Assembly: GCA_035530075.1 (NCBI GenBank)
Contig: DATKVM010000005.1
Span: forward strand, 231,006 to 295,005
DNA from: Patescibacteria group bacterium
GTDB taxonomy: Bacteria > Patescibacteriota > Microgenomatia > UM-FILTER-40-11
DNA length: 64,000 nucleotides
Direction: 5' to 3'
The translations under genes and the position numbers were made by a program. The notes below the pieces were generated by a model. The model did no database searches, was not told where the DNA came from, and saw only the letters and a program-made list of their open reading frames with translations. The stretch's first letter is position 1. Every line of letters starts with the position of its first letter. Positions 8,485 to 31,843 of this stretch are shown here, piece after piece.

Positions 8485-8494
8485 CTCTGAGCTT

Positions 8495-8583
8495 GCGCCT
8501 GTAGTTTAACGGATAAGCATAGCTTGATGTTCGCAGGCTCACATTAAGCATAGCTTGATTCTCGCCAGCTAAGCTGGCTCAAA
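8495..8583 (+). repeat. tRNA-Arg 5'-fragment remnant plus two 15-bp direct repeats (TAAGCATAGCTTGAT)
   Basis: 8495-8516 'gcgcctgtagtttaacggataa' mirrors the 5' acceptor and D-arm of tRNA-Arg(GCG) ('gcgctcatagtttaacggataa'), but no matching 3' half follows. The sequence 'taagcatagcttgat' occurs at 8514-8528 and again at 8545-8559. A hairpin GCCAGCtaaGCTGGC sits at 8564-8578. Confidence 0.45.
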
Positions 8584-8611
8584 TTAAAGCGTCAGGTTCT
8601 CGCCCGCTTAT

Positions 8612-8683
8612 GCCTTTGTAGCTTAACGGATAGAGCGCCGGCCTCCGGAGCCGGAAATGCCAGTTCAATTCTGGCCAGAGGCA
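8612..8683 (+). tRNA. tRNA-Arg(CCG)
   Basis: Acceptor GCCTTTG/CAGAGGC; D-stem GCTT/GAGC with loop AACGGATA; anticodon stem CCGGC/GCCGG with loop CTCCGGA (anticodon CCG); T-arm GCCAG-TTCAATT-CTGGC. No encoded CCA. Confidence 0.8.
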
Positions 8684-8685
8684 CT

Positions 8686-9192
8686 GTGGTTAGACAGTAT
8701 TCTGCCGGCGGGGTGGTTTTCAAAAAAGAAGATGGCCAGACTCTTTGGCTTTTGATCCAGCCTGCCCGCATTGCTACGCAAAGCGTTGCAGGTGAGCCGG
8801 CCGGCAAAGACGAGTTCCATAAACGAATTCGCTGGCAACTGCCTAAGGGTTGGATTAATGAGGGTGAAAAAACCGAAGCGGCGGCGATACGGGAAGTGGC
8901 TGAGGAGGGGGGAGTTAAGGCAAAAATTATCTCCAAGATAGACTCGATAAAGATTTTCTTCAGCAATACCTTTGAAGGCAAGCCCGAGGAAAAAATTTTA
9001 AAAACCATTGCTTTTTATTTAATGGAATATTTGGGAGAAAAGGCTAATGGCCATGATGAGGAAGTAGCTGAAGTGGCTTGGCTGCCTTTTGAAGAAGCCA
9101 AAGGAAGGCTGACTTTTAAAAGTGAAAAAGAAGTTTTAACCAAAGCCAAAGAGATTTTAGAAAATCCACTACCGCAACAAGCACTTTTTTAA
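8686..9192 (+). CDS. Nudix hydrolase
   Basis: GTG start 2 nt after the tRNA-Arg. Nudix box 'GWINEGEKTEAAAIREVAEEGGV' (Gx5Ex7REUxEExGU). Confidence 0.75.
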   Translation: MVRQYSAGGVVFKKEDGQTLWLLIQPARIATQSVAGEPAGKDEFHKRIRWQLPKGWINEGEKTEAAAIREVAEEGGVKAKIISKIDSIKIFFSNTFEGKPEEKILKTIAFYLMEYLGEKANGHDEEVAEVAWLPFEEAKGRLTFKSEKEVLTKAKEILENPLPQQALF

Positions 9193-9233
9193 GCTCGCAA
9201 TTTGCCTCAAAATCAAGTAAAATAGGCATATCC

Positions 9234-9268
9234 GGAGAGGTCGCATAAGCAAGCTTGACCGACCTCTC
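9234..9268 (+). repeat. Duplicated 5' fragment of tRNA-Ser(GGA) forming a hairpin (GGAGAGGTCG...CGACCTCTC) around 'ATAAGCAAGCTTGAC'
   Basis: 9234-9247 'ggagaggtcgcata' equals the first 14 nt of the tRNA at 9278. The junction motif AGCAAGCTTGA resembles AGCATAGCTTGA in the 8495-8583 remnant. Confidence 0.4.
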
Positions 9269-9277
9269 TTGATATTC

Positions 9278-9364
9278 GGAGAGGTCGCATAGTGGTCGAG
9301 TGCACGCGCTTGGAGAGCGCGCAGGGCCGAGAGGCTCTCGCGGGTTCGAATCCCGCTCTCTCCG
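9278..9364 (+). tRNA. tRNA-Ser(GGA)
   Basis: Acceptor GGAGAGG/TCTCTCC (one G-U pair); anticodon stem CGCGC/GCGCG with loop TTGGAGA (anticodon GGA); long variable arm; T-arm GCGGG-TTCGAAT-CCCGC. Confidence 0.8.
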
Positions 9365-9447
9365 CAACGCGGAAATAGGGATATGAAGAACCTTAAATTT
9401 ACCAATCTGGCAATGTTTATTATCTTTTTGGGCCGACTTTAGGAAAA

Positions 9448-14947: not shown

Positions 14948-15024
14948 GTCTAACAAATAAATCATTTGGTCATGTTGGCAGGAGAGAGAAGGGGTGGGAA
15001 AAGTTAGATTAAGAAAATACAGCC
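14948..15024 (+). repeat. Island repeat copy R1 (degenerate)
   Basis: '...ggcaggagagagaaggggtgggaaaagttagattaagaaaatacagcc' matches the right half of the consensus CAAGTTTAGACCTAATTGGTGGGCGAGGGGAGGGTTGGGAGAAGTTAGATTAAGAAAATTCAGCC. Confidence 0.6.
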
Positions 15025-16417: not shown

Positions 16418-16460
16418 TCAGATTAAAAAAATTCAGCCCCCATCCTGGATGAAGTTCGAA
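16418..16460 (+). repeat. Island repeat copy R2 (right-end fragment, ...AGATTAAAAAAATTCAGCCCCCATCCTGGATGAAGTTCGAAC)
   Basis: Near-identical to the right end of R4 (22391-22437). Confidence 0.6.
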
Positions 16461-16461
16461 C

Positions 16462-16767
16462 TTATTTTTTGGCTCCGAAGAAACCGAAGAATCCAAAAAA
16501 ACCAAAAAGTCCAGTGCTGCCCCCTAATCCCAATAAGCCAAACAATCCTATCCAGCCAAGCTTCCACAAATCCCTTGGTTTGCCCTTTCTAATATAATTG
16601 ATTGTATTTTGAACGACTGAAATCACAAATCCAAGAGCAAATATAAAGGTTAGAAGGAAAAATACTGGTTCTTCAATTTTGGAGACACCATAAATAGCGT
16701 TATGCAAAACAATAGAAAGTATGGTCAGCCCGAACAAAATATAGTTTCTTTTTGTTTGTTTTTCCAT
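16462..16767 (-). CDS. Small membrane protein with a Gly/Phe-rich tail (GLFGFFGFFGFFG)
   Basis: 101 aa and two TM helices. Last gene of the minus-strand operon. Confidence 0.4.
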   Translation of the reverse strand: MEKQTKRNYILFGLTILSIVLHNAIYGVSKIEEPVFFLLTFIFALGFVISVVQNTINYIRKGKPRDLWKLGWIGLFGLLGLGGSTGLFGFFGFFGFFGAKK

Positions 16768-16795: not shown

Positions 16796-17797
16796 CTAGG
16801 TATTTTTAATTAAACTCCAAGTGGCATATTCTTCAGGAGTTAAGGTCGGCTCTTTGGCGGATTTTTGGCGGTAAGACCGCTCGAAGTGGGGGACCAGAAT
16901 ATCTTTCTCATAGGATTTAATAATGACGGGATGAATATAGTAGGTGCGGCAGACTTTCTTGGTATTGCCAAGCTGGGTTGAGACTTCGGCCACCACTTCA
17001 GAGAGATTGTTTTTTAAATCCGCCTCGGAAAGCGCCTTGCCTTTTTTATACAGCCAGTCTCCGGCTAAAACGCTGCCGCCCCAGGTGCGAAAATCTTTAG
17101 CGGAAAAATCTGCTCCCGTATGAGTTTGCAAGTAATTGTTCACCTCGGCTGCGTCGACCACTTGCCGGTTATTATTTTCGTCTAAATACTGAAACACTTG
17201 ATAGCCGGGAAGGTCAATGCAGGCCTTAATCGTTCTGGCCACTCGGGGATGATTGACCCCCAGTTCATGAAAGACCCCGCTTTTACCTTCAAAGCTAAAG
17301 GTCATCGTATTGCCTTCAACCTCAATATGCTTTTTGCGCATGGTGGTTAGGCCGTAGGACTGGTTTTCTTCGGCGTAGGTTTGATTGCCCACCCGGATAA
17401 AAGTGTGCTCCAAAAGCCAGACGACCGTGGCAACGACGCGATTTTGAGTTAGAGAGTGTTCTCGCATATGGCCGCTGACGACTTCGCGCAGGGCGGGGAG
17501 CCGCTCGCCAAAAGCTACCATTTGGTCAAACTTTTTTTCTTGGTTGCGCTTAATCCACTCGGGGTGATAAATATATTGTTTGCGGCCGGCTGCGTCCACG
17601 CCAATCGCCTGAACATAATCGTCGGGGTCTGAGCTAACAACCACCTCGGTCCAGGCGGGGGGAATGGCCAACGCGGCTAAACGCTCGGCCGCCGTTTTGG
17701 AAACCGGCTTGCCTTTTTCATCGATAAACCCAAAGCCATTACCTCTCTTAACCCGCCGCCAAGGAAGTTCTGTATCTTTCCGATAATGAATTGTCAC
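16796..17797 (-). CDS. DNA topoisomerase IB (poxvirus/bacterial type)
   Basis: 'AIPPAWTEV...AIGVDAAGRKQYIYHPEW' and the C-terminal 'LGNTKKVCRTYYIHP' match bacterial TopIB motifs, including the catalytic Tyr region. Confidence 0.7.
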   Translation of the reverse strand: MTIHYRKDTELPWRRVKRGNGFGFIDEKGKPVSKTAAERLAALAIPPAWTEVVVSSDPDDYVQAIGVDAAGRKQYIYHPEWIKRNQEKKFDQMVAFGERLPALREVVSGHMREHSLTQNRVVATVVWLLEHTFIRVGNQTYAEENQSYGLTTMRKKHIEVEGNTMTFSFEGKSGVFHELGVNHPRVARTIKACIDLPGYQVFQYLDENNNRQVVDAAEVNNYLQTHTGADFSAKDFRTWGGSVLAGDWLYKKGKALSEADLKNNLSEVVAEVSTQLGNTKKVCRTYYIHPVIIKSYEKDILVPHFERSYRQKSAKEPTLTPEEYATWSLIKNT

Positions 17798-18925: not shown

Positions 18926-20347
18926 TCATTCATCTTTAATTCCAACATAAAACCTGCCGGTGGCGACACAAACACCCTTATTTATGGCATAGCAATCAAC
19001 CCAATGCATACCTGGGTATTGGGTGTGTTCTTCTTTAAAGTCTGAGTCTCCCTCGCAAAAATGAAATTCGTTTCCTCTCCAACCGCCTATGCGTGCCATT
19101 TCTAATGCCGGAAGTCCATTATTAACCACTAACCACCTTATTTCATCATATACAAGTCCATTAATATCTGGTGAAAAATATAAGGAATATTCCTTGCTAA
19201 GATATTCTCCTGAAGTCATTGACCTTGTGCCATTAAGTACCTCAAGTTGAAACTTAGAAAATGGTTTTGGAATATTCTTGAAAGAAGGAGGATTTTTAAC
19301 CTTTTCTGAGCGCTTGACCTTGCAGGAAACGTTAATTTTTGAGGGGTTAGGAGCAAAAGGCCATGGCGGATTAGCAATGAGACTCTCCCTCAAAGCAGAA
19401 TATACTTCTTCTCTTTCTTCCTCTGGCATGTTTATAAATTCACCTAATGCTTTGGAGGCAAAATCCACGGCTAATTTTCTTTGCACTCCCGTTTTATCTT
19501 CATTCAAATAACTGTCCACAAAAATATTGCTCTCTGCCATATCTGGTATTGCTGGTTTCTCTAGCCATTGCCCCATATTCTTAAGGAAATAACAAACTGC
19601 ATCATAAAAATTAATACCTTTATTCTGGGCAAAGATGTTTGTGATAACTAGCTCAAGATGAAAGGATTTCAGCTCAAACTCGGTTAATCCGGCATTACAC
19701 GACTTTTTCCAAACTTTAGCAAACTTGACGGATTTTCTATAACTAGGATTTGAATTTAAATTTAAAGCTTGTTTGATGTAGCCTTTGGGGTCAGACAAAA
19801 TCCAGGGAATTTTCCCCCCACTAACGCTATATTTCTTGGCCCAATTGCCCCGGTGCATTTTCTGGATTTCTGGAACCAAATAAATATCGTCTCCATACCT
19901 GTTTTTTCTTCCAGATTTTAAAGCGGGAACAACATCTATGGAAAAACCCTTTTCTTTTGGAAAAGCGATGCTAACTGAGTGTGTTTGGTCTGCGTCAATT
20001 TCTACTTCTTCTCCTATTTTACGATAACCTTCGGCCAAAATTGAAGCTAAGCTTTGTAATGGGTCTTTAACATCAAAATAGAAGGGTTCACCTTGCTTAG
20101 CGCTTGAAAAAAGCTTACTTCCGGTTACTTGAAAAGCTTCAGGTAATACCCATATTATGTCAAGGTCGTGAACGGGGGTTACTGAAGTTTCTCTAACATA
20201 TGAACCGCTTTGAAAAATTTCATTCCCAGGTAATATCTCTTGAAGGTCGCTGTAATGTTTTGAAATAACTTCTCTTTCCTCCGCCGGGGGCGATAAATAC
20301 TTGCGACAAAACTCCTCTAAGGTGGTATTAACTTCGTCTTGGTTCAT
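18926..20347 (-). CDS. cGAS/DncV-like nucleotidyltransferase (CD-NTase/SMODS-type Pol-beta NTase) with a ~300-aa C-terminal domain of unknown function
   Basis: 'QSGSYVRETSVTPVHDLDIIWVLP' fits GS-x9-[DE]hDh. The third acidic residue lies in 'FSIDVVPAL' about 75 residues later. This spacing and context match CD-NTase, OAS and SMODS cores. The gene overlaps the upstream TM-protein gene by 20 nt. Confidence 0.55.
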   Translation of the reverse strand: MNQDEVNTTLEEFCRKYLSPPAEEREVISKHYSDLQEILPGNEIFQSGSYVRETSVTPVHDLDIIWVLPEAFQVTGSKLFSSAKQGEPFYFDVKDPLQSLASILAEGYRKIGEEVEIDADQTHSVSIAFPKEKGFSIDVVPALKSGRKNRYGDDIYLVPEIQKMHRGNWAKKYSVSGGKIPWILSDPKGYIKQALNLNSNPSYRKSVKFAKVWKKSCNAGLTEFELKSFHLELVITNIFAQNKGINFYDAVCYFLKNMGQWLEKPAIPDMAESNIFVDSYLNEDKTGVQRKLAVDFASKALGEFINMPEEEREEVYSALRESLIANPPWPFAPNPSKINVSCKVKRSEKVKNPPSFKNIPKPFSKFQLEVLNGTRSMTSGEYLSKEYSLYFSPDINGLVYDEIRWLVVNNGLPALEMARIGGWRGNEFHFCEGDSDFKEEHTQYPGMHWVDCYAINKGVCVATGRFYVGIKDE

Positions 20348-20918
20348 ATCGGTACGAGGACATAATGGAAAAAATATCGCTCACTAAGCGAAGTGGCATG
20401 CTTGATAGAGCATACCATTTGTAATCTTTAATTATTTCCTTATGTTTATCGTCAAGTTGGTAGCCTATTTCAAAGGTATAAATAATTAAGGGTTTATCGG
20501 CTCGCTTGACCATTTGAAAAAAATCGTCAAAGTCATTCATTCCCCTATGGTATCCCAGTATTATAATGCCAGCTTCATCAATATCTTTCTGGTCAATAGC
20601 ATGGAAATCGGTTACAACTCCTTTAGAGACATTAAAATAGCCTGAACTCTTAAGAACGCCAAGTTCCCGTTCCATGTCTTTTGTTCCGCCATCAGTTCTT
20701 TTTCCCCCGGGCGGACAAAAAATAAAAACCTTTTTGCCTAAATTCTTCCCAAGTCTCCAAAAAACTTTGGCCGAACGACTGAAGATAACAATATACCCCA
20801 CAAAGACCAATAAAAGACCGCCAGCGGCTTTTAAAATATCCCAGAGGCTAAGGATGGTAGCAACATTGTTGATGTTCGTATCGGTTTCCATTTTGCCTGT
20901 CAAATAAGTGCTTGACAT
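20328..20918 (-). CDS. N-terminally TM-anchored protein with a Rossmann-like alpha/beta domain (possibly TIR-like or SLOG-like); candidate effector
   Basis: TM helix 'LLLVFVGYIVIFS', then 'KKVFIFCPPGGKRTDGG...IIILGYHRG...KPLIIYTFE', which alternates beta and alpha elements. First gene of the operon, separated from divergent lexA by 30 bp. Confidence 0.4.
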   Translation of the reverse strand: MSSTYLTGKMETDTNINNVATILSLWDILKAAGGLLLVFVGYIVIFSRSAKVFWRLGKNLGKKVFIFCPPGGKRTDGGTKDMERELGVLKSSGYFNVSKGVVTDFHAIDQKDIDEAGIIILGYHRGMNDFDDFFQMVKRADKPLIIYTFEIGYQLDDKHKEIIKDYKWYALSSMPLRLVSDIFSIMSSYRYEPRRS

Positions 20919-21545: not shown

Positions 21546-21661
21546 GTTGGTTTTACCAGTCTTACCCAGTGGTAAGTATAGTGAAAGCCCATTTGTTCCC
21601 ACGCGTGGACTCCCTTCGGTTCCCTCAGGGCAAGCCCTTAGGAAACTCAGGGTAAACTTCA

Positions 21662-21780
21662 CGCCTTCCAGACCTAACAAGCCTGCCTGCCGGTGGGCAA
21701 GTTTAGACCTAATTGTTGGGCGAGGGGGTGAAAGAAGTTAGATTAAGAAAATTTAGCTTGCTCTGAAACGACTTTCGAAC
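21662..21780 (+). repeat. Island repeat copy R3 (extended form with a CCTGCCTGCCGG left arm)
   Basis: '...ccttccagacctaacaagcctgcctgccggtgggcaagtttagacctaattgttgggcgagggggtgaaagaagttagattaagaaaatttagc...gactttcgaac'. Confidence 0.6.
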
Positions 21781-21781
21781 T

Positions 21782-22303
21782 TTAAACATTTCGGGCTTGT
21801 AACTTTGGTAATAGCGCCTTGTATCGTTTAATTTTGGTTTGTTTAGTTAACATGGCGTATCTGGGCGAAGGAGATGGTAGGCAAATCAACTCTATCTTAG
21901 TGTATTGTTGGATTATATCCTTGAACTGTCTTTTAAACATTTTTTCTACATGGCGACTGGTGAAAAAGATTTTCTCGATAGTATGGTTTTTGAGGATAGT
22001 TGTGACCCCATTAGTGTTATAGACGATATTAAATAAGTTTATATCTAAATTACTATTTTTCTTTCTTTCGCAGGATAAGATTATATCTACTAGTGCCATC
22101 TTTAGTTGTACAAAAAGCCCTTGCTGCCTTTCTTTAGTACTGAAGTCGGAACTATAAACTTCTTCCATGATTGGCCAGAACTGATTGCGACCGTTTGCAT
22201 AAAACCAGTCGTAAGGACTTGAGGGTTTAGTTACAAAACTTCCCAGCATTAAATACTTTACTTTCTCAGGAACAAAGTCTCCAAACGGATGCGTTTCAAC
22301 CAT
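21782..22303 (-). CDS. UDG-superfamily DNA glycosylase (MUG/TDG family-2-like)
   Basis: 'MLGSFVTKPSSPYDWFYANGRNQFW' parallels the MUG/TDG motif GINPG...NHFW. The C-terminal 'LPSPSPRYA' parallels the TDG motif MPSSSAR. Confidence 0.5.
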   Translation of the reverse strand: MVETHPFGDFVPEKVKYLMLGSFVTKPSSPYDWFYANGRNQFWPIMEEVYSSDFSTKERQQGLFVQLKMALVDIILSCERKKNSNLDINLFNIVYNTNGVTTILKNHTIEKIFFTSRHVEKMFKRQFKDIIQQYTKIELICLPSPSPRYAMLTKQTKIKRYKALLPKLQARNV

Positions 22304-22340
22304 GGGAATATTATACTGTAGTTCGAGTCCACGCCGGGTT

Positions 22341-22437
22341 CAGTGTAACAAGTTTAGACCTGATTGGTGGGCGAGGGGAAGGTTAGGAGAAGTTAGATTA
22401 AGAAAATTCAGCCCCCATCATGGACGAAGTTCGAACT
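22341..22437 (+). repeat. Island repeat copy R4 (near-consensus)
   Basis: 'cagtgtaacaagtttagacctgattggtgggcgaggggaaggttaggagaagttagattaagaaaattcagcccccatcatggacgaagttcgaac'. Confidence 0.7.
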
Positions 22438-22445
22438 AGTTTAGC

Positions 22446-23048
22446 TTAAGGATTGAAGTTTTGGGCCTTTTCAAAAATCTCAGAAAGTAAATGATAATAA
22501 CTTTTCGCTTCTTCTTTTACTTCTGGCAGAGAAATAATTGCTATTTTTTCCTCTAATTTCTGCTTAGCATATCTTAGTAAATCCTCAAATGCCATTCCTC
22601 TTTTACCTAAAGAAGAAATAAAGGCAAATACTCCTCTTGGGTGAAGAAATTTAAAGCAATCAGCATTAGCGCAGATTTCTGCCTCAATACTGGGATATTT
22701 CTTCATACCGTGGTGACTTGAAATACAATCTGAAATTTCTTTAATAATCTTTTTATCTAAATCTAAGGGTCTTATTGCTAATAAAGTTGCCTTAAGGGAC
22801 ATTTGAACATGGTCTTTCATTCTATTATTCAGGAAAGCTTCTCCCATTTTCAGGTCCATAAAATTCAGACAGGCTAAAATAAAATCTTCATTTGCCTTGT
22901 AGGCTTTCGCCAATTCTTTCCCATAGGCTAAACAAATTTTATGGTTTTCTATTGGAGGTATATCTGTCTTTTCAACCTCCTTTTTTAGAAGTTTTTCAGA
23001 AATTTCTAAGAGATTTTTGTTAAAATCATTCATACCCAATTTTATCAT
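22446..23048 (-). CDS. Putative HD-superfamily hydrolase (weak call)
   Basis: 200 aa with spaced His/Asp residues (HKICLAY, MDLKMGE, KDHVQMS, SSHHG, NADCF). The assignment is uncertain. Confidence 0.3.
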   Translation of the reverse strand: MIKLGMNDFNKNLLEISEKLLKKEVEKTDIPPIENHKICLAYGKELAKAYKANEDFILACLNFMDLKMGEAFLNNRMKDHVQMSLKATLLAIRPLDLDKKIIKEISDCISSHHGMKKYPSIEAEICANADCFKFLHPRGVFAFISSLGKRGMAFEDLLRYAKQKLEEKIAIISLPEVKEEAKSYYHLLSEIFEKAQNFNP

Positions 23049-23090
23049 AAACTAAAAAGCCCAATTTTAAGGGCTTTCTGAAGCTAGCTC

Positions 23091-23208
23091 CGTAATCCTA
23101 GGATTAATCTTGCCTGCCGGTTGCATGTCGCCAAAGGCTTTCGCCGACGGCACGCAGGCAAGTTTAGACCTAATTGGTGGGCGGGGGGAGGGTTGGGAGG
23201 AGTTTGGA
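23091..23208 (+). repeat. Island repeat copy R5
   Basis: Left arm 'cgtaatcctaggattaatcttgcctgccgg' matches the left arm of R12. Core 'caagtttagacctaattggtgggcggggggagggttgggaggagtt'. Confidence 0.65.
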
Positions 23209-23382
23209 TCTCCAAAGACAACTACCAGTCGTCGCTGGGCAGTTCTCTTAACATATCTGAACGACCCGACTCAAATCCTTCTTGCCGGCCAAAGAAAAAA
23301 TGTTTCCATGACTCAACAATATTTCCAATATTTCCACTCCCGGAGTGGAATAGTTCTCGCACTGAAGCTAAACAACGCTCCG

Positions 23383-23628
23383 CTAGCGATGAGAAGGCTT
23401 TTCTAAACCCAGTGCGACTTGACGAGCGCAATTATCTCTGTGACCCAACTCCTGGTCGCCTCTGCACCAAGGGCACCTTGGATAAACATTAGCCTCATTC
23501 ACATATGTCATGACGAACTCGACTTGCTGTAGTGCCCCTCGCAACAATGTTATTTGTTCTTCTGGAGACATCGATATCTCTCCCCCCGGTGAACCGCCTT
23601 CTTTTTCCCTTTTAACCATCCTTTCCAC
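23383..23628 (-). CDS. Hypothetical small Cys-containing protein (CPWC)
   Basis: 81-aa ORF in an otherwise ORF-poor 0.5-kb stretch between R5 and R6. Coding status is uncertain. Confidence 0.25.
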   Translation of the reverse strand: MERMVKREKEGGSPGGEISMSPEEQITLLRGALQQVEFVMTYVNEANVYPRCPWCRGDQELGHRDNCARQVALGLEKPSHR

Positions 23629-23702
23629 CTCCCTCTAGGCAGAGATTAAGAACAATTCATCCTAAATCTACTCTTTCTGCTTATTATTGTCAAAAAATTC
23701 CT

Positions 23703-23760
23703 TTTTAGACCCAATTGGTGGGCGAGGGGAGGGTTGGAAGAGGTTAGATTAGAAATTCAA
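23703..23760 (+). repeat. Island repeat copy R6
   Basis: 'tttagacccaattggtgggcgaggggagggttggaagaggttagattagaaattcaa'. Confidence 0.65.
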
Positions 23761-23895
23761 CTCCTCAATCTTGAGATTATTATAGTAACAATCGAGAAAG
23801 TATTAAAGGCTTTTGAGAACGTTATCCAAATGGAGTTGGTAAGGGTCAGGTGGGAAGAAATCCAAAGATTTCAAATTAAATCCACTTCTGTTTAA

Positions 23896-24660
23896 TCAAG
23901 GTTTCCTTGCGACAATAACTACTCTATGTCTTGGGAATTTAATTCCCTTCTTTGTCCTAAACTTCGCCACATATTTCTCTAAGAATTTCATATCTTTCTC
24001 GGAATCAAAATCTTCAAATATGGGAACTCCTTGTAAAAATAGGTCTAAATCTTCATAAGAAGCATAGTATTCGTCATAGAAATAATCTTGAGCAAAGATG
24101 ATTTCAAACCCTGCGTCTTTAAGCTCCCATTTATCCTCTTCTAGTCTCGAAGCATTCCACTCTTTATATCCTTGACCACGACCAAATATTTCTTTAATTG
24201 ATTGACAGTCTTTTTCTCCAATGTTTATACCAACAAAGTAACCACCTGATTTTAATAGTCTATGAAACTCGGAAAAAGGTGTCGGGCCGCGACGACTAAA
24301 TATTAAATCAAAAGATTTATCGGAAAATGATGTTTTGCTGGCATCCTGCAGTTCAAAAATAACATTTTTGACTTGTAAAATATTTTGCTTTTGCCTGGCA
24401 ATTTTTAATAATCCTTTGGATATGTCAATTCCTGCGATACTTAAAAAATATTTTGCTATTTGGAAAGCAAACTTTCCGTCACCGCATCCAGCGTCGAGAG
24501 CAATTTTGTTTTTATTTGCCAAACCAAGTAGTTTTTTCTTAAAAATTTTCTCAGGATCTCCATTCGGATATTCGGAAAGGTGTTCTACATGACTTTTACC
24601 AAAGGCGTATCCACCGAATTTCTTAGCCACTTTATCGTAGAAGTTTGATGACATAAGCAT
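23896..24660 (-). CDS. Class I SAM-dependent methyltransferase
   Basis: Motif I 'ALDAGCGDGKFAFQ' and post-I acidic 'GIDIS'. 254 aa. Confidence 0.65.
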   Translation of the reverse strand: MLMSSNFYDKVAKKFGGYAFGKSHVEHLSEYPNGDPEKIFKKKLLGLANKNKIALDAGCGDGKFAFQIAKYFLSIAGIDISKGLLKIARQKQNILQVKNVIFELQDASKTSFSDKSFDLIFSRRGPTPFSEFHRLLKSGGYFVGINIGEKDCQSIKEIFGRGQGYKEWNASRLEEDKWELKDAGFEIIFAQDYFYDEYYASYEDLDLFLQGVPIFEDFDSEKDMKFLEKYVAKFRTKKGIKFPRHRVVIVARKP

Positions 24661-24789
24661 ATTTTACTACTCTTTTAGACCTCACGTCTGACTGTTTTTA
24701 CCCCGCTATTGGATTCAAAACATACGATTTAGTTTTCTAACACAGACTTTTTCTAAGTGGCTTTAGAAAAATAGTCTTTTATAGCTTTG

Positions 24790-24869
24790 CACCTTCCAGG
24801 CCTAACAAGTTTAGACCTAATTGGTGGGCGAGGGGAGAGTTGGGAAAAGTTAGATTAAGAAAATTCAGT
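24790..24869 (+). repeat. Island repeat copy R7 (near-consensus)
   Basis: 'caccttccaggcctaacaagtttagacctaattggtgggcgaggggagagttgggaaaagttagattaagaaaattcag'. Confidence 0.7.
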
Positions 24870-25011
24870 TCACACTGAGTCCTTCGATAGACTCAGGGTA
24901 AATTTATCGAAGTGCCCGCCGGATGGAACGATTTTTTAACCTTAAGCTGGGTTGAGTCCGTCAAGTTTCATCCTATTGAACTATCGCAACTTCCTTCTAT
25001 AAAATAAGTAT

Positions 25012-25545
25012 TTATTTTTTTAATTCCTTAGTAGTACTTCCTTGCTCCAATAATCGGAAAATATCTAAGACGTAATCCGGCCAAATCCATTCAATGAATT
25101 TAACTCCGTTATTTTCTTCAACCGCTTGGATTATCTTAGAAAGAGGAACATTGTCTCGGGCAAGTCCTTGTTTTTCTAAATCAAGAATTTCTTCCAGTGT
25201 GAACCACTCAACAGTCTTTATTTCTTCCTCCAATCTATTGCCGAGCCTTTCAAAACCTTCTCCGTAAAAGACAAAACTTAAAAGATAAATCGTGTTATTT
25301 AAAGTTCCCTGGACAACCGTGCCTAGACGAACAATGTTAGTTTTACCTCCCGTTTCTTCAACCAATTCTCGTTTGGCTGCTTCCGCGACACTCTCTTCTT
25401 TATTTACCTCGCCATGGGGAAAAGTCCACTTGCCCTTGGAGTGAGTATTGATATGACCATAAACTTTATCGGTCGCTTCCTGAACCAGTAGATATTTACC
25501 ATTATCTTTGACCAGGCAATTAGCCAAAATTATTGGGCGTATCAT
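25012..25545 (-). CDS. Nudix hydrolase
   Basis: Nudix box 'GEVNKEESVAEAAKRELVEETGG'. 177 aa. Confidence 0.7.
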   Translation of the reverse strand: MIRPIILANCLVKDNGKYLLVQEATDKVYGHINTHSKGKWTFPHGEVNKEESVAEAAKRELVEETGGKTNIVRLGTVVQGTLNNTIYLLSFVFYGEGFERLGNRLEEEIKTVEWFTLEEILDLEKQGLARDNVPLSKIIQAVEENNGVKFIEWIWPDYVLDIFRLLEQGSTTKELKK

Positions 25546-25675
25546 TTAAGTAGATTATAGCAAATGTTCGAATCCTGTCTGGGGTATAAAGTTATTAGGA
25601 TAATATTTGAGGCTAAAAAAATTTGCTCCTCTATCTAGACACTATACGAACTAGAGAGTGGGTTAGTAGTTTTTT

Positions 25676-26485
25676 ATGCTAAAAATTATCACTTCATCTA
25701 ATAAAATGGGGTTAAAGAGCATTAGTTTATTATATAATGTACCTATGCTTGATGAAGAGGAAGCCGTTGTAATTACAGTAGAAGAGGAAGATTGGCAAAC
25801 TCGATATTTTAAAGAAAAAGGTAAGCCTACACAAGAAAGAACAGTAATTATTCAAGGACATGTAATAAATATTGTTAATTACGATCACGAATTTGTTTTT
25901 ACAGGAACTCATTTAAAAGAGCTCCAAGAATTTGTTACAAGAGCTAAAGAACTTAATCCTAATTTATTAAGAAACTTTAAAAAAATAGTTTTTGGTGATA
26001 CCCAACCTCCCAGTAGATACAATGACGAAGAAAAACATCCTTTTAATGGGACGACACTTATCTCAGAAGATGGCGTGTGGTTTCATAAACGAGGTCAAAG
26101 AACTGATATTAGACATCGCACAGGTGATACTTCTAATTTTCAAGGAACACTAGCTCATGAAGTCATACACCTAAGCGAGAATCAAGTAGAACATCGGTGG
26201 AGAAAGGATTTTGAATGGCACTACTGTTCTGAATTTCAAAATGAATGGGAACAAACAGAAAATAAGGGTATATGGAGAAATAAGACAAATGGACGGAAGG
26301 CATTGGAAGGTCAATTTACCAAACATCCTGAGCGGTGCGTTACAGATTATGGAAGAATGACATGGGATGATGATTATGCTGATAGTGGTGTAGTGGCAGT
26401 ATTTAATCCTCAAAGACTACAAACTATTTGCCCTCAAAAATTAGAAGTAATTAGACAAGTAGGAAAAGAACCTGAAGTTGCTTAA
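25676..26485 (+). CDS. Hypothetical protein with an HExxH motif (possible zincin-like metallopeptidase); noticeably AT-rich
   Basis: 'LAHEVIHLSE' in a 269-aa ORF. Codon usage is more AT-rich than the flanking genes. Confidence 0.35.
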   Translation: MLKIITSSNKMGLKSISLLYNVPMLDEEEAVVITVEEEDWQTRYFKEKGKPTQERTVIIQGHVINIVNYDHEFVFTGTHLKELQEFVTRAKELNPNLLRNFKKIVFGDTQPPSRYNDEEKHPFNGTTLISEDGVWFHKRGQRTDIRHRTGDTSNFQGTLAHEVIHLSENQVEHRWRKDFEWHYCSEFQNEWEQTENKGIWRNKTNGRKALEGQFTKHPERCVTDYGRMTWDDDYADSGVVAVFNPQRLQTICPQKLEVIRQVGKEPEVA

Positions 26486-26520
26486 CATATCAATTAGCTT
26501 GATGTGAGGTTTTGTTTTCT

Positions 26521-26556
26521 CCCCCGTGTGGGCTCGAACCACGAACCAATCGCTTA
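26521..26556 (-). other. att-like partial duplicate of the tRNA-Asn(GUU) 3' half (T-arm and acceptor)
   Basis: 'cccccgtgtgggctcgaaccacgaaccaatcgctta' is nearly identical to 31773-31808 of the intact tRNA-Asn ('cccccgcgtggattcgaaccacgaaccgatcgctta'). The match ends at the anticodon stem. Confidence 0.55.
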
Positions 26557-26559
26557 TGG

Positions 26560-26635
26560 TTTCACACCTCCCAAGTGTAACAGCCTGCCTACTGGTAGAC
26601 AAGTTTAGACCTAATTGGTGGGCGAAGGGAGGAAC
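26560..26635 (+). repeat. Island repeat copy R8 (truncated at its right end by the GNAT gene)
   Basis: 'ttcacacctcccaagtgtaacagcctgcctactggtagacaagtttagacctaattggtgggcgaagggagg'. Confidence 0.65.
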
Positions 26636-26641
26636 AAAGAA

Positions 26642-27106
26642 TTACTTCTTAGTTAATTTTTTGATAAAGTGCACCAAAGTTGAATGCTCTGTAAATCCTA
26701 ACTTCTTATGAAATTCAATACTTTCCTTATTCCAGTCCCAAGTGTCTGAACCCATTTCTTTACACCCCTTTGTCTTTGCCCATTCTTCAGCCTTCCTGAT
26801 TAATTCTTTGGCAATTCCTCTTTTGCGATATTTCTCTTTAACGTACAAGCCCTCAAGGTAACCAACAGGGTACTCATTTGCGCCTGGAATATGTTCTTCC
26901 TTAATTGAAGCGCTCACAAAAGCTACAAGAAGATGATCTTCTTTGCCGACAAATACGATATCTCTATCCGATCGCAAGATTCGGTTAAATTCTTCTTTTA
27001 TTTCCTTTTCCGAATGTTTTGGCCAAAGCAACAATCCCATTTTAACTAACTCTTCGAAATCTTCGTTGTTTGCCTTGACAATATTCATCATCTTTGATTC
27101 TATCAA
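26642..27106 (-). CDS. GNAT family N-acetyltransferase
   Basis: Acetyl-CoA binding region 'VKEKYRKRGIAKELIRKAEEWAKTKG'. 154 aa. Confidence 0.7.
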   Translation of the reverse strand: MIESKMMNIVKANNEDFEELVKMGLLLWPKHSEKEIKEEFNRILRSDRDIVFVGKEDHLLVAFVSASIKEEHIPGANEYPVGYLEGLYVKEKYRKRGIAKELIRKAEEWAKTKGCKEMGSDTWDWNKESIEFHKKLGFTEHSTLVHFIKKLTKK

Positions 27107-27127
27107 GAATCGCCTGTTCTTCCAAAA

Positions 27128-27176
27128 AAGGTGGGCGAGGGGAGAATTGAGAGAAGGTGGATTAAGAAAATTCAGC
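27128..27176 (+). repeat. Island repeat copy R9 (right half)
   Basis: 'ggtgggcgaggggagaattgagagaaggtggattaagaaaattcagccc'. Confidence 0.65.
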
Positions 27177-27265
27177 CCCGGTGGTAGGATTCGAACCTAC
27201 AACCTTTCACTAACAGGGAGCCGCGCTCCCTCCGCCAGTTGGCGGATCACTACGCCGGAATATCC
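27176..27265 (-). other. tRNA-like fragment (T-arm GTAGG-TTCGAAT-CCTAC plus an Asn-like anticodon loop rc CTGTTAG); no complete cloverleaf
   Basis: The reverse complement contains 'aggttgtaggttcgaatcctaccaccgg'. I could not find a matching 5' acceptor strand within 90 nt, so this is probably a pseudo-tRNA or att remnant. Confidence 0.35.
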
Positions 27266-27397
27266 CCATAATAGCAAGTTTAAGGCCAAAGGGCCAGGGT
27301 AAATTTGCTAGGCAAAAAAGAACTCTAGCCTGGTCTTAAACTGACTCTCTTGGTATCGCCAGAAAAAAGGCGTATGCTAAAGTGAAGGAGAATACAT

Positions 27398-28894
27398 ATG
27401 GAAGAACAAGAGAATGCCCCCGAGATATTGAGTAGTGATGTTCAGCCAACGGTGCCACTGCCTTCAAACAAGCCTGTTCTCAAGCCAAGTTTACCCTTAG
27501 TAATTCTTATAATAGTTTTTTTGATTTCCTTAATCACTCTTGCCGTCTTTTTTCTAAGTAAGCGCTTGGATTTTTTTAATACGCGAATAGCTATTCCCAC
27601 AAATTCTTCCCAGGGAAGTCCCTCTCCTTCAGTTCCCCAAGAACTGGATATTCAGAAAGATATTCAAAGCCGTGAGCATTTGAATGACCAGAAAAACATT
27701 AGCCCTGGCGATATTGTTTCCTCAGGGTTTATTGACCCTTCACTTTTTACTAAAAAAACATCCTCGTCTTCGGTACTAGAGTTAGTTAAAAAAGCCCATG
27801 CTCAAGAAGTAAAACAGGTCCCGGCTTTATTTTATGTTAAAAACAAAACCCAAATTGCGGTATTGGACTTATTTAGTAACCAGGAATATCTATTGCTTGA
27901 CTTGAAAGATTTTAGCAGCATTTCTGTTAACAGCGGCACCGTAATCTCTAAACAATATTTTGTCAATAAGTCCAAACAAGTCGTGTTTCAATTAATGGAA
28001 AAGCTAGTGGATGATAAATATAAAACCTCTTTTCAGGTTTATGACATTAGGTCTCAGAGTTTGAAAGAAGTTGTTTCAACCACCGGCGGAAGCGGGGACC
28101 CGGCTAATTGGAATGGTTTTAGTATTTCGCCGGATGAACATTCCCTTTTCATACTTTATGTTAATCCCTACGAGAGCGATCCCTTTGCTGATGTTGCCAA
28201 TAAGGTAGTGGAGAATCCAGGTTATTTTGATAATACTTATTTTTTCTTTAATCTTGATGATGGTTCTTTAAAAAAATTTAAATTGGACGAAAGACTGACG
28301 GGTATGATTAACTTTCAATGGTCTTCAGATAGCAACTCTGTTCTTCTTTTGTACAGCCGCACTTACGAAACTCCATCCTCTTTAGTTCTGTTCTCAGTTT
28401 CCCCGTTGGCTGTCAAAGAAATTCTTTTTCAAGGATCTGGCTCCGAAAGAGATCTGGTAAAGGGTCAATATTTTCCTGACCTTAAAAAGATATTTTACAT
28501 TTCGACAGGGTCAAATAAAGAAGAAAGTACTTTTTCGGAAAGGCACTTTGGTTATCTGAACCTCGCCAGCCAAAATTTTAATGACGTTATTGAGCCTGGC
28601 TATGAAGTGACCCAGTTTGTGTTTGATTTTAATAAGGGTTTTGTGGTTAATACTCAGGTCCATAGCGAAAGCCAAACCAGCAGCAAAGCTCTTAATTATT
28701 ACGATTTAAGTACTGGTAAGGTAACTAAAATTATCGAAGGGGCATTTAATATTCTTGGTTTTAATGGAGATTATCGCCATTTGTTAGTGAGTAGTTTGAA
28801 CGGATCAAGGTCGGATTTATATGACCTGGATATTGAAACTGGACAAACCAACTATCTTACAACAACCCAAGCTGCTATACCTTATCAGTTTTAA
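27398..28894 (+). CDS. Hypothetical secreted or membrane-anchored protein (N-terminal TM helix, beta-rich C-terminus)
   Basis: 498 aa. TM helix 'LPLVILIIVFLISLITLAVFFL'. No catalytic motif seen. Confidence 0.4.
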   Translation: MEEQENAPEILSSDVQPTVPLPSNKPVLKPSLPLVILIIVFLISLITLAVFFLSKRLDFFNTRIAIPTNSSQGSPSPSVPQELDIQKDIQSREHLNDQKNISPGDIVSSGFIDPSLFTKKTSSSSVLELVKKAHAQEVKQVPALFYVKNKTQIAVLDLFSNQEYLLLDLKDFSSISVNSGTVISKQYFVNKSKQVVFQLMEKLVDDKYKTSFQVYDIRSQSLKEVVSTTGGSGDPANWNGFSISPDEHSLFILYVNPYESDPFADVANKVVENPGYFDNTYFFFNLDDGSLKKFKLDERLTGMINFQWSSDSNSVLLLYSRTYETPSSLVLFSVSPLAVKEILFQGSGSERDLVKGQYFPDLKKIFYISTGSNKEESTFSERHFGYLNLASQNFNDVIEPGYEVTQFVFDFNKGFVVNTQVHSESQTSSKALNYYDLSTGKVTKIIEGAFNILGFNGDYRHLLVSSLNGSRSDLYDLDIETGQTNYLTTTQAAIPYQF

Positions 28895-29000
28895 GCCGGC
28901 ATAACTACACAAAAAAGCTGATAGTCAACTATGGCTTTGTAATCCTGGTATTAATCCAACTAACATTATACCAAGCATTATCAAGGCTTTCCAAAATTCC

Positions 29001-29057
29001 GTGGGGTAGAGTAGGCGAAAGAAAGATTAAAGAAGTTAAATTAAGAAAATTCAGCCC
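29001..29057 (+). repeat. Island repeat copy R10 (degenerate)
   Basis: 'gtggggtagagtaggcgaaagaaagattaaagaagttaaattaagaaaattcagccc'. Confidence 0.5.
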
Positions 29058-29165
29058 AAGAACCGGACACCATATTATTTCCACTCCCGGAGTGGAATAA
29101 CATAACCTCACACCTTCCAGGGGCAATCTGAATTTAAAAATCAGGGAGAAGTGACCTCAAGATAG

Positions 29166-29468
29166 TTAAGGGACTTGGGGACTTTCTTCATCCATCATCT
29201 CAGCCGCAAATGAAAGTATTGACCTTCTAGAAGCATTATCACCTTCCGGCAAATTCTGAAGAACGGCAATAAATCCCAGTAGATTTTTCCTAAATCTTTC
29301 AGCAATCTGAGCGTTGGTATAAGTACCTATTTCTAGCTGATCTGCCGGAACCTCCGGTAGCCCTGCCGCTTTAAAAGCTGCCTCAACAAAGGCTGACCAT
29401 AAAGTTTCTGGATCTATTAGATCTCTTTCTCCTGAGGCCATATGCCTACAAAATATATTAAAAACCAA
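29166..29468 (-). CDS. Hypothetical protein
   Basis: 100-aa ORF between R10 and R11. Confidence 0.3.
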   Translation of the reverse strand: MVFNIFCRHMASGERDLIDPETLWSAFVEAAFKAAGLPEVPADQLEIGTYTNAQIAERFRKNLLGFIAVLQNLPEGDNASRRSILSFAAEMMDEESPQVP

Positions 29469-29520
29469 AGCTTGTCAACTATAGGCAAAAGCCCTATGGT
29501 CCTGGTATTGCTGGTTCGTC

Positions 29521-29614
29521 CCTGCCTGCCGGGGTACAACCCAGGCTTCACACCTCAGGTGTAACAGGTAATGGATTTAGGCCTAATTGGCGGGTGAGGG
29601 GAGGATTGGGAGCT
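29521..29614 (+). repeat. Island repeat copy R11 (left-arm-rich form)
   Basis: 'cctgcctgccggggtacaacccaggcttcacacctcaggtgtaacaggtaatggatttaggcctaattggcgggtgaggggaggattgggag'. Confidence 0.6.
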
Positions 29615-29623
29615 GAACATTAG

Positions 29624-30301
29624 TTACCAGATAAAAGGGACGAGACGGTACTTTACCCGTTTACAATAGTCGTTGTAACCTGGTAAATCACGTAGCAATA
29701 CTTCTTCCTCGTTCAGTGCTCGGATAATAACGACTCCACATATGGGTAGAAAAGCCACTAAAGCCCAATAAGAACCAAGCGCCAGAGGAGTAAATAAAAA
29801 AAGAGGGATAACGCCCGCGTACATCGGGTGTCTGACAAGAGCGTAAGGACCGGTATCGATGACCTTTTGTCCTTCAAAAACCTCGACCGTCCGCCCAGCA
29901 AAGGCATTTTCTTTAAAAGCAAGAAATACCAGATAATAAGCAAAAACAATTATGATGTTGGAAACAATTACTAACCATAAAGGGACGTTGGACCAACCAA
30001 AACGATAGTCCAGTCCCGGAATTAAAAAACCTAAAAAGAAAATTATACCTGTTAATTTAATAATTAAATCCTGTTTGGCTTCTTTCTCTTTAAACATCAT
30101 CCTCCGCTTCAAAAACGCTGGAGACTTTTGGAGAAAATAGAGCGAAAGAAAGAGTGAGCAAGAAAGGATTATGGCGATAAAAATCCACCCCTGCCAATAC
30201 CTAAGGGAGCCTGCAGGCAAAAAAAGCATTGACGCCAGGACTACAAATGCCAAAGGATACAACAGAAGAATTTTACTTCTCATTTTTGCCATTTTATTCA
30301 T
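29624..30301 (-). CDS. Isoprenylcysteine carboxyl methyltransferase (ICMT)/phospholipid methyltransferase family membrane protein
   Basis: Multi-TM protein with 'ALVRHPMYAGVIPLFLF' (RHPxY motif). 225 aa. Confidence 0.6.
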   Translation of the reverse strand: MNKMAKMRSKILLLYPLAFVVLASMLFLPAGSLRYWQGWIFIAIILSCSLFLSLYFLQKSPAFLKRRMMFKEKEAKQDLIIKLTGIIFFLGFLIPGLDYRFGWSNVPLWLVIVSNIIIVFAYYLVFLAFKENAFAGRTVEVFEGQKVIDTGPYALVRHPMYAGVIPLFLFTPLALGSYWALVAFLPICGVVIIRALNEEEVLLRDLPGYNDYCKRVKYRLVPFIW

Positions 30302-30321
30302 ATTTATATTATATAACGCTT

Positions 30322-30381
30322 CGTAATCCTAGGATTAATCTTGCCGGTCGGCAGGTTGGGATTAGATTAAGAAAATTCAGC
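30322..30381 (+). repeat. Island repeat copy R12
   Basis: 'cgtaatcctaggattaatcttgccggtcggcaggttgggattagattaagaaaattcagc'. Confidence 0.6.
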
Positions 30382-30448
30382 GGATATCCTGAGTTCACCC
30401 CGAAACAAACTCAACAGTTGCCGGCATAAATTAACACCCGCCTTAAAA

Positions 30449-30700
30449 ATGCTGGGCTTGAGGGTCTTACTTGACGAGGCGGGGGTAAGAGAATTTAGGG
30501 AAATGACCAAACGATACGGTAGCTCTGCTTGGTATAGTCTGAATAAGGAAATGAAGGGGTTTGGAAATGCCGATGAGGTTACTGTGTTTTCGCTATTGAA
30601 AAAGCAGATAACCGATTTTGAGCCGTTAAAACTGGTTGCAAATCAAGGTATAATGTTAAATAATGATAAATATGAAAGCAGAACAATACTACACGATTGA
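30449..30700 (+). CDS. Hypothetical protein
   Basis: 83-aa ORF directly upstream of the excisionase-like gene and overlapping it. Confidence 0.3.
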   Translation: MLGLRVLLDEAGVREFREMTKRYGSSAWYSLNKEMKGFGNADEVTVFSLLKKQITDFEPLKLVANQGIMLNNDKYESRTILHD

Positions 30701-30848
30701 AGAAGTAGCCAAGCTACTGAAAGTAGCATATCTGACAGTTTACCGTTGGATACAAGCTGGCAAGCTCACAGCTTATAAGGCTGGTAAACAGTATCGGATA
30801 AAAGGAAACGACCTAAATAAATTCTTAGAGAAAAAGAATACAAAATGA
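30663..30848 (+). CDS. Excisionase/AlpA-family helix-turn-helix DNA-binding protein
   Basis: 'YTIEEVAKLLKVAYLTVYRWIQAGKLTAYKAGKQYRIKGNDLNKFL' is the typical Xis-type HTH-plus-wing pattern. 61 aa. Confidence 0.6.
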   Translation: MINMKAEQYYTIEEVAKLLKVAYLTVYRWIQAGKLTAYKAGKQYRIKGNDLNKFLEKKNTK

Positions 30849-31348
30849 GCAAAATAAAGAAACTAAACCAAATAGCAAAACTTACGAAGAAATTGAGCAA
30901 AGAAGGTAAAAAAACGGCTCTAATCACAGGTTGCTTTGATATTGTGCATATAGGGCATATACAACTTTTTAGGTTTGCAAAGAAAAATGCCGATGTGGTT
31001 ATAGTAGGTTTGGATAACGACAAATCAATTAGACTTTCAAAAGGTATAAAACGACCAGTCAATAACCTTGAATATCGTTGTCAAACCATTGCTGAATTGG
31101 AAAGTGTTGATTATGTTTTTCCAATTGAAGATACCATAACATTTAACACTTCTGATGCAGACGAAATTCACATAGTGATGTTACAGAAAATTAAACCAGA
31201 CCTCTTGATTACAAATCCTATTGCAGATAAATACTGGAAAGATAAGCAGAAACGAGCGAAAGAATTAGGAATAAAGTTTTTACCAATAACTCGTCAAAAA
31301 ATGACATCATCAACGGAAATTATAGACAAGTTGCTTTCAGAAATATGA
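30845..31348 (+). CDS. Cytidylyltransferase-like nucleotidyltransferase (HxGH motif)
   Basis: 'ALITGCFDIVHIGHIQLF' carries the HxGH signature of the cytidylyltransferase/adenylyltransferase Rossmann family. 167 aa. Confidence 0.55.
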   Translation: MSKIKKLNQIAKLTKKLSKEGKKTALITGCFDIVHIGHIQLFRFAKKNADVVIVGLDNDKSIRLSKGIKRPVNNLEYRCQTIAELESVDYVFPIEDTITFNTSDADEIHIVMLQKIKPDLLITNPIADKYWKDKQKRAKELGIKFLPITRQKMTSSTEIIDKLLSEI

Positions 31349-31810
31349 TAAAAGCAGTTATTTTAGCCAGAGTATCAACGCTCAAACAGGAAAAAGAGGG
31401 ACTATCTCTCAAGGATATTCAACTCCCCGAACTTAGGGATTATGCCGTCAAAAGAGATTTTGAAGTAGTCAAAGAGTATTACTGAGAGCTACTATGAGGA
31501 AAAACGAAAAGAGTATCGGGCAAAACAGAAGGAAATTGAGAACAAAATGGCTAAGCTACGATTTGCCGACGAGGAATACTATATAACCTCAGAATACCTG
31601 CTAAAACTGGCTTCTAACGCAAGTAAACTGTTTGAAAGTTCTGAAGCACACGGAAAACGGCTACTTTTGAAGATGACACTTCAGAACTTGGAGCTAAAGG
31701 GTAAAAAAGCCCGATATGACTGGACAAAACCCTTTGACAAGATTGCTTTTTACGCCTCTCGTCAAGTTCAGCTCCCCCGCGTGGATTCGAACCACGAACC
31801 GATCGCTTAA
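31345..31810 (+). pseudogene. Serine recombinase remnant: a 46-aa catalytic N-terminus (ARVST) then a stop, followed by an out-of-frame C-terminal tail
   Basis: 31345-31485 encodes 'MIKAVILARVSTLKQ...' (resolvase catalytic Ser motif) and ends at a TGA. A second open frame runs from about 31480 to 31810 ('...EKRKEYRAKQKEIENKMAKLRFADEEYYITSEYLLKL...'). Its 3' end overlaps the tRNA-Asn 3' end. The total is far shorter than a functional recombinase. Confidence 0.5.
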
Positions 31811-31843
31811 CAGGCGAGCGCTCTACCGTTGAGCTACAGGGGA
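31772..31843 (-). tRNA. tRNA-Asn(GUU)
   Basis: Minus strand: acceptor TCCCCTG/CGGGGGA; D-stem GCTC/GAGC; anticodon loop CTGTTAA (anticodon GTT) with a 4-bp stem plus one mismatch; T-arm CGTGG-TTCGAAT-CCACG. Confidence 0.75.

Follow-up and report, generated by a model that had tools for sequence, protein, structure and literature searches.

A decayed large serine recombinase element and a repeat-bounded island at a tRNA-Asn gene of a Patescibacteria group bacterium

What was inserted beside the tRNA-Asn(GUU) gene of a Patescibacteria group bacterium (GTDB lineage Bacteria; Patescibacteriota; Microgenomatia; UM-FILTER-40-11), and how far does the insertion reach? The question is raised by a 64,000-nucleotide stretch of contig DATKVM010000005.1 (assembly GCA_035530075.1, positions 231,006 to 295,005 of the forward strand), which is called the window here and whose positions are used throughout. 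A broken serine recombinase gene abuts the tRNA gene, and a second copy of the tRNA 3' half lies 5.3 kb away. A first-pass annotation, made from the sequence alone, had taken the two tRNA copies as the left and right attachment sites (attL and attR) of one decayed integrative element. In our analysis the decay, the Xis-type gene and the overlap with the tRNA 3' end were supported, but the extent of 5.3 kb was not. Our preferred reading, to which we give a probability of about 0.7, is that 21.5-31.8 kb is an island anchored at tRNA-Asn and built by repeated integration and decay. Its newest layer (about 30,382-31,810) would be the stump of a large serine recombinase (LSR) element, and the half-tRNA copy would go back to an older event. 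As a decayed mobile element the stump is ordinary in kind; the element family and a deletion hotspot in its recombinase gene are new.

The recombinase stump, its intact relatives and the recombination site

The intact 491-aa LSR of a related locus, L007 (gene of 1,473 nt), was used as the reference for the window recombinase. Labels beginning with L denote related loci, and a slash in a sequence marks a break point. The features at the right edge of the island are as follows.

30357-30381, plus strand: right-hand repeat module GATTAAGAAAATTCAG, directly next to the P' remnant and similar to the left chromosomal arm of the L087 attL
30382-30429, plus strand: remnant of the P' arm of the element, with the translation GYPEFTPKQTQQLPA and a stop, like the '...EYPEFT.KQTQQLL' extension in P0068, P0100 and P0077
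30449-30700, plus strand: orf83, the last 83 codons of the 390-aa backbone protein of the family, with the remainder deleted (comparison with relatives)
30663-30848, plus strand: HTH_17 excisionase-type gene, a conserved backbone gene (PF12728, E 8.9e-17; PHROG excisionase families)
30845-31348, plus strand: cytidylyltransferase-like cargo gene in the variable cargo slot of the family (Pfam CTP_transf_like, E 3.5e-15; PHROG 7878)
31345-31479, plus strand: N-terminal stub of the LSR, residues 1-45 including the ARVST catalytic serine motif (tblastn, 95.6% identity to L007)
31475-31483, plus strand: deletion junction AGT/ATTACT, with 1,037 nt missing, a 3-nt AGT microhomology and its right endpoint at a family-wide hotspot
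31475-31810, plus strand: LSR residues 390-491, the C-terminal tail, in a different reading frame from the stub (tblastn, frame translations, about 160 tail homologues)
31771-31843, minus strand: intact tRNA-Asn(GUU) without encoded CCA (ARAGORN; Rfam tRNA, 65.3 bits)

The stub begins MIKAVILARVST..., and its called open reading frame (ORF, 46 aa) ends at 31485. It retains only the first third of the resolvase catalytic domain, serine nucleophile included, and alone has no Pfam match. Residues 390-491 of the tail align to 31475-31780 (tblastn, 82% identity to L007). The stop codon of the tail ORF (31808-31810) lies 40 nt within tRNA-Asn, and the last 13 codons are antisense to the tRNA. The loss of 1,037 of 1,473 nt between the two pieces causes a frameshift and removes residues 46-389 with the Recombinase (PF07508) and zinc-ribbon (PF13408) domains. 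Both domains are present in the intact LSR of L006 (Resolvase, Recombinase and Zn_ribbon_recom). Because of this deletion, the window gene is a pseudogene of the LSR family. These results confirmed an internally deleted recombinase with an ARVST stub and an out-of-frame tail overlapping the tRNA, as first proposed, and the intact homologue in L007 supplied the size of the deletion. The AlpA/Xis-like helix-turn-helix gene and the cytidylyltransferase-like gene named at the same time were also recovered by the profile searches listed above.

The two surviving pieces of the recombinase retrieved 161 proteins, and the 120 listed were all short proteins with matches confined to the tail. When one genome per species was scanned, 68 loci were recovered. 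About 19 of them have an intact recombinase gene (about 490-570 aa) with Resolvase, Recombinase and zinc-ribbon domains. The LSR tail directly abuts the antisense 3' end of a tRNA gene in about 30 loci (mostly Asn, also Gln, His and Arg), and its conserved ...TGG CTC CCC codons are the antisense of the tRNA ...GGGGAGCCA. Intact elements measure 7.3-9.7 kb and have the gene order P' arm, orf347 (about 350 aa), orf54, SpoVG-like gene, 390-aa protein, HTH_17, one cargo module and the LSR of about 490 aa. HTH_17 homologues were found upstream of the LSR in 17 loci. The cargo slot contains an Erm-like methylase, BglII, HinfI or type I restriction-modification genes, or AbiEii. Tandem copies of the element occur in L034 and L029. 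The 390-aa protein alone forms a family of more than 2,600 protein clusters, mostly on contigs of 1.5-10 kb. Together these small, plasmid-like elements form a very common family in Patescibacteria, not described before, whose insertion site is the very tip of tRNA genes.

Both ends are known for nine integrated copies (L006, L007, L009, L015, L023, L043, L085, L087 and L089). The left junction consists of flank, CTCC(CCC) and TAAAGGACTTATTCTGCAAC..., and the right junction of ...CAAGCTTGG, CTCC... and the tRNA; the nine attL/attR pairs have only CTCC(CCC) in common. What attP and the tRNA share is limited to 4-10 bp, at most TGGCTCCCCC; this core lies at the extreme 3' end of the tRNA and is the antisense of its ...GGGGGAGCCA tip. 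The comparisons of attL, attR and attP place the core of the window, CTCCCCC, at 31772-31778, the 3' tip of tRNA-Asn. A circular form was also found. The whole contig of L011 (9230 bp) has a 75-nt terminal overlap and is therefore a circle of about 9.15 kb, in which the recombinase gene reads straight through attP (...CAAGCTTGGCTCCCCCTAAAGGAC...). The attP sequence is TCTCGTCAAGCTTGGCTCCCCCTAAAGGACTT. Many homologues of the recombinase have a C-terminal extension (LKDLFCN..., SPNLT... or ERWYDF...EYPEFT.KQTQQLL), and it is the sequence behind the core that encodes it. The LSR would exchange strands within TGGCTCCCCC, and the tRNA would stay whole with only 4-10 bp duplicated, because the exchange takes place in the short core at the tRNA tip. 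A 40-nt repeat of the tRNA half, with up to 9 mismatches allowed, was sought within 10 kb upstream of intact elements, and none was found.

Two other candidates for attP were rejected. The composite of tail, tRNA half and CA..hairpin..TGGACTATCTCATC in eleven loci was shown by Rfam to be a tRNA-Asn with a group I intron. An attP inside the recombinase gene at the hotspot, with SSV1-like splitting, does not agree with intact copies that have no second copy of the tail, nor with att pairs at the tRNA tip.

The left end of the window copy was located by its backbone. The P' remnant is of the third type of C-terminal extension and lies about 20 nt upstream of orf83. Since these two pieces place the left end near 30,382, the window copy appears to cover only about 30,382-31,810 (1.4 kb). 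It has lost the first ~50 nt of the P' arm, about 3.5 kb of the left backbone and the recombinase core. With 3-4 kb missing from the left backbone and 1,037 nt from the recombinase gene, the stump cannot move by itself. The earlier description of the element as apparently fixed in place is uncertain, since the stump keeps the recombinase-proximal arm and the core and an intact relative might therefore act on it in trans.

Some observations on the relatives stand beside these results. The circular copy L011 is binned in a 'Saccharibacteria' metagenome-assembled genome. The recombinases of L009, L011 and L012 are mosaic relative to L007, with a catalytic domain (residues 1-150) only 10-50% identical and a zinc-ribbon region and tail 80-90% identical, which suggests domain swapping between lineages. 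L029 contains four remnants of the recombinase tail within 7 kb (3513-3711, 5730-5800, 9173-9300 and 10001-10411), one of which consists of an N-terminal stub fused to the distal end of the tail; they are a stack of decayed copies of the same family.

The deletion hotspot

The right endpoint of the window deletion recurs in other genomes. In 26 tail-only loci, the window included, recombinase homology starts at the same nucleotide, /ATTACT (Ile-Thr 390-391), and the DNA 5' of the joint is unrelated among them. G stands at position -2 in all 26 loci, at -4 in 24 and at -5 in 21, against a background G of 0.18. Intact genes read GGTAGT/ATTACT at this place (codons Ser-Ile-Thr 389-391), and the consensus of the partners is GGNGR. 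The same start was seen among the 120 protein clusters listed, where 44 begin their homology at the hotspot behind 40 distinct, unrelated upstream sequences. The recognisable upstream partners are genes of the same element, on the same strand and in six different places. They include orf347 (residue 135 or 254), orf54 (residue 42) and SpoVG (residue 25 or 44), and further the 390-aa protein (residue 40) and, in the window, the recombinase itself (residue 45). As the partners are the element's own genes on the same strand, the deletions were repeated and independent, with one fixed end. Deletions ending at one site in many independent genomes point to a putative site-specific process that would produce derivatives without recombinase.

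Two simple explanations of the joint were discarded. Microhomology deletion fits the window (AGT) but fails at 22 loci with a different position -1. The TAGTATTAC at the hotspot resembles a circovirus-type nonanucleotide origin, but the break falls at T4/A5 and not at T7/A8, there is no stem-loop, and the left parent in the window has no ATT.

A further explanation is that the tail persists because it has a use of its own, be it as a small protein or as an arm for mobilisation in trans, and that its boundary is cut by an element-encoded nicking or replication protein at GGTAGT/ATTACT and at GGNGR look-alikes. The tail ORFs are indeed unbroken in nearly all of the 26 tail-only loci, the same junction (MYYWRR/IT) is seen with different downstream arms, and a circular form exists. 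The segments kept after deletion always run from the hotspot through att to the left genes. The differing downstream arms suggest that hotspot-deleted derivatives may still recombine at the att core. The candidate enzyme, however, did not gain support. Searches of Pfam, PHROGs, NCBIfam and PDB sequences gave no match to the 390-aa protein, nor did tblastn against phages and plasmids. With its AlphaFold model (pLDDT 72.7), Foldseek found nothing in PDB and only three unnamed viral models. It thus matches no replication-initiator family by sequence or fold, and a motif resemblance to gene II/Rep_trans-type initiators was rejected for lack of Pfam, PHROG, NCBIfam, PDB or Foldseek support. No nickase for cleavage at the hotspot was identifiable, no conserved hairpin or stem-loop was found there, and at position -1 the partner motif does not agree with the authentic site. 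We therefore regard a useful tail cut by such a protein as doubtful. A wider proposal is speculative and improbable: GGNGR/ATTACT would be the cleavage or strand-transfer site of an element enzyme that makes trans-mobilisable mini-elements and cassettes, and the array described below would be a serine-recombinase cassette platform parallel to integrons.

The displaced half tRNA and the cassette island

Further inward, the window contains the following features.

26519-26556, plus strand: displaced direct copy of the 3' half of tRNA-Asn, positions 36-73 (repeat family D11)
21546-30381, mixed orientations: array with about 10 small gene units, between which a 66-110-nt repeat recurs (repeat analysis)
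about 21680, 22331, 23141, 23697, 24790, 26560, 27110, 29031, 29547 and 30357: copies of the repeat, with partial copies at 15007-15022 and 16421-16436

The half-tRNA copy aligns to 31772-31809 over 38 nt with 34/38 identical; the duplicate reported at first reading is therefore present, at 38 nt instead of 36. It extends from the acceptor end to anticodon-loop position 36, starts at T36 and has one mismatch in the T stem. As a rough estimate, a random 38-nt match of this quality is expected about 1e-11 times within 64 kb. A member of the window repeat family adjoins the copy, as had been noted. Other tRNA-like 3' fragments (T-arm and acceptor strand) occur on the minus strand at 27170-27260, 22405-22440 and 16437-16470; they directly follow the repeat end ...AAAATTCAG, and ARAGORN and Rfam called no tRNA at these three places.

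The array lies between LexA and the LSR element, and its units include methyltransferase, NUDIX, GNAT and PEMT genes and unknowns. The repeat reads ...CTTCACRCCTTCCAGRCCTAAC..AAGTTTAGACCTAATTGGTGGGCGAGGGGAGGGTTGGGAGAAGTTAGATTAAGAAAATTCAG. No conserved fold was found for it (RNAalifold, 3 pairs, -1.3 kcal/mol). When it was sought in the 68 related loci, it was present only in this genome. No tyrosine recombinase was found among the island ORFs.

Contigs of the same population, taken from other samples, showed how the array varies. The match of L076 to the window stops at 23,199, within a repeat, beyond which L076 has a different cassette. The sister-strain contig L091 is 99.4% identical to window 24668-29606, half-tRNA copy included, then diverges inside a repeat at 29,6xx, where other cassettes follow. 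L091 ends in a tRNA-Asn that is 95.6% identical to that of the window, has an encoded CCA and adjoins no recombinase. L002, from the same sample as L091, has the window arrangement. These comparisons show the cassette island to be a strain-variable mosaic. Because L091 has the copy together with an LSR-free tRNA-Asn, the half-tRNA copy is best read as a scar independent of the serine recombinase element, and it is probably older. It would have been left by an earlier event with a crossover or break in the anticodon loop. A 269-aa ORF of L091 was considered as an orthologue of window orf269 and proved unrelated.

Four points weigh against the layered island. L091 has an unoccupied tRNA-Asn, but this metagenome contig differs from the window on both flanks of the tRNA; allelism is not proven, and the contig could represent a second locus. 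What stands at the left end, at 30,382, is a P' arm cut short, with no clean attL and without the expected CTCC core. The tail of the window ends ...CAAGTTCAG/CTCC, against ...CAAGCTTGG/CTCC in the family, which is not fully explained. Finally, no recombinase able to make the anticodon-loop scar was found in the window. At 31760-31778 the tail has Gln for the near-invariant Trp before CTCC, and 16 nt there recur unchanged in the chromosomal arm of the L087 attL.

The half-tRNA copy might alternatively be the 3' exon of a former intron-containing tRNA-Asn and no att scar. Six relatives have a tRNA-Asn(GUU) with a group I intron between U35 and U36 (RF00028, 65-105 bits): L012 (10340-10588), L019 (9034-9283), L032 (10341-10558), L038 (10340-10574), L055 (284-478) and L070 (10341-10623). 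ARAGORN misses these intron-bearing genes of Patescibacteria. The window copy begins at T36 and loses identity exactly at the same U35/U36 bond. The DNA adjoining it, however, is unlike those introns and lacks the terminal G, and Rfam found no intron in window 15-40 kb at E<=1. A break in the anticodon loop is also the classical crossover site of tRNA-targeting integrases. We judge the exon origin unlikely, and the older integration scar of the layered island remains our preferred source of the copy. The window repeats were also considered as debris of group I introns; they have no similarity to those introns and no Rfam match.

For the array itself, the units of 21.5-30.4 kb could have been captured singly by a serine recombinase at att-like sites, in analogy to integrons. 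In favour of this, the right-hand repeat module (...GATTAAGAAAATTCAG/CCCC) is similar to the chromosomal arm plus core of attL in L087 (...GATTAAGACAAGTTCAG/CTCCCCC). Strain differences break inside the repeats, and half-repeats flank single genes, for example those at 29547 and 30357 around the PEMT gene. On the other side, there is no IntI and no attC-like hairpin, the restriction of the repeat to this genome argues against capture, and the resident recombinase is no longer functional. The swaps would be explained equally well by homologous recombination between 66-nt repeats. Capture of single cassettes thus has a low probability in our view. The repeats were also rejected as integron attC sites, since motifs like RYYYAAC/GTTRRRY (here the slash separates the two motifs) are visible but come with neither a conserved hairpin nor IntI.

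The reading as one element of 5.3 kb (26,557-31,771), which this recombinase would have inserted into the tRNA-Asn anticodon loop with the tRNA halves as attL and attR, is largely refuted and very improbable. In its favour, the 38-nt direct repeat exists and has the correct orientation, and the recombinase lies directly against the intact tRNA copy. Against it, nine att pairs and the circle share only 4-10 bp at the tRNA tip, the backbone puts the left end at about 30.38 kb and so leaves the tRNA-half repeat outside the element, L091 has the repeat and the distal cassettes with no recombinase element at its tRNA-Asn, and the repeat-bounded cassettes inside the interval are the same as those found outside.

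Several other features of the window were noted. A perfect 24-nt repeat containing the palindrome TTCCACTCCCGGAGTGGAA is found in two different cassettes (23329-23352 and 29076-29099). Beside LexA, a nucleotidyltransferase with SMODS/AGS_C domains, like that of a cyclic-oligonucleotide-based antiphage signalling system (CBASS), and an overlapping gene for a 196-aa partner occupy 18926-20918. A topoisomerase IB gene lies at 16796-17797. At 3926-4301 and 5585-9365 there are a tmRNA gene and six clustered tRNA genes (Ser x4, Arg x2), and similar clusters lie a few kb from tail remnants in L032, L038 and L049.

Known systems and significance

The window can be compared with four known systems. Classical serine integrases (phiC31, Bxb1, A118 and TnpX type) target protein-coding genes or intergenic sites. 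The family resembles the large serine integrases of phages and integrative and conjugative elements in its Resolvase, Recombinase and zinc-ribbon domains and in short att sites with minimal identity, and its small HTH partner gene could, as in those systems, be a directionality factor. It differs from phiC31-type integrases in targeting the tRNA 3' terminus and in having attP inside the 3' coding end of the recombinase.

The textbook footprint of P4-like islands, whose tyrosine integrases target tRNA genes with an anticodon-loop or T-loop crossover, reaches from acceptor end to anticodon loop. The 38-nt copy in the window matches this footprint. In contrast to those islands, the window has no tyrosine recombinase, and the recombinase next to the tRNA is a serine recombinase that acts at a different part of it. 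The array recalls integrons in its mostly single-gene units, recurring separator, adjoining recombinase gene and cassette differences between strains; it differs in lacking IntI and a folded attC, in a repeat conserved in sequence and not in structure, and in mixed gene orientations. Compared with rolling-circle replicons, the family has a circular form but no HUH or Rep_trans match for the 390-aa protein and no hairpin at the hotspot.

The closest architecture is that of the tycheposons in the tRNA islands of Prochlorococcus, which are small cargo elements at tRNA genes, a minority of them with large serine recombinases (bioRxiv 10.1101/2020.12.28.424599). In those islands older elements are displaced inward by newer ones, with integrase fragments and incomplete tRNAs left behind, and subpopulations are heterogeneous (bioRxiv 10.1101/2020.12.28.424599). 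The window island likewise combines serial integration at one tRNA, decayed remnants and variation at the strain level. The Patescibacteria family differs in its host and in a backbone of SpoVG and the 390-aa protein in place of the primase/helicase modules of tycheposons. It also differs in the 4-10 bp core at the tRNA tip, the overlap of the recombinase ORF with the tRNA and the position of attP in the coding end of the recombinase.

The recurrent deletion endpoint is a clean, testable signature of a DNA-processing activity. A serine integrase with a 10-bp core at the tRNA tip and attP in its own coding end would be a candidate tool for genome engineering. Patescibacteria, also known as the candidate phyla radiation (CPR), have tiny genomes and are usually described as poor in mobile elements. 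The elements described here bring restriction-modification, rRNA methylase, Abi and sugar-nucleotide genes into tRNA-linked islands, and because they carry such cargo there, they may be a main route of gene flow and defence turnover in Patescibacteria.

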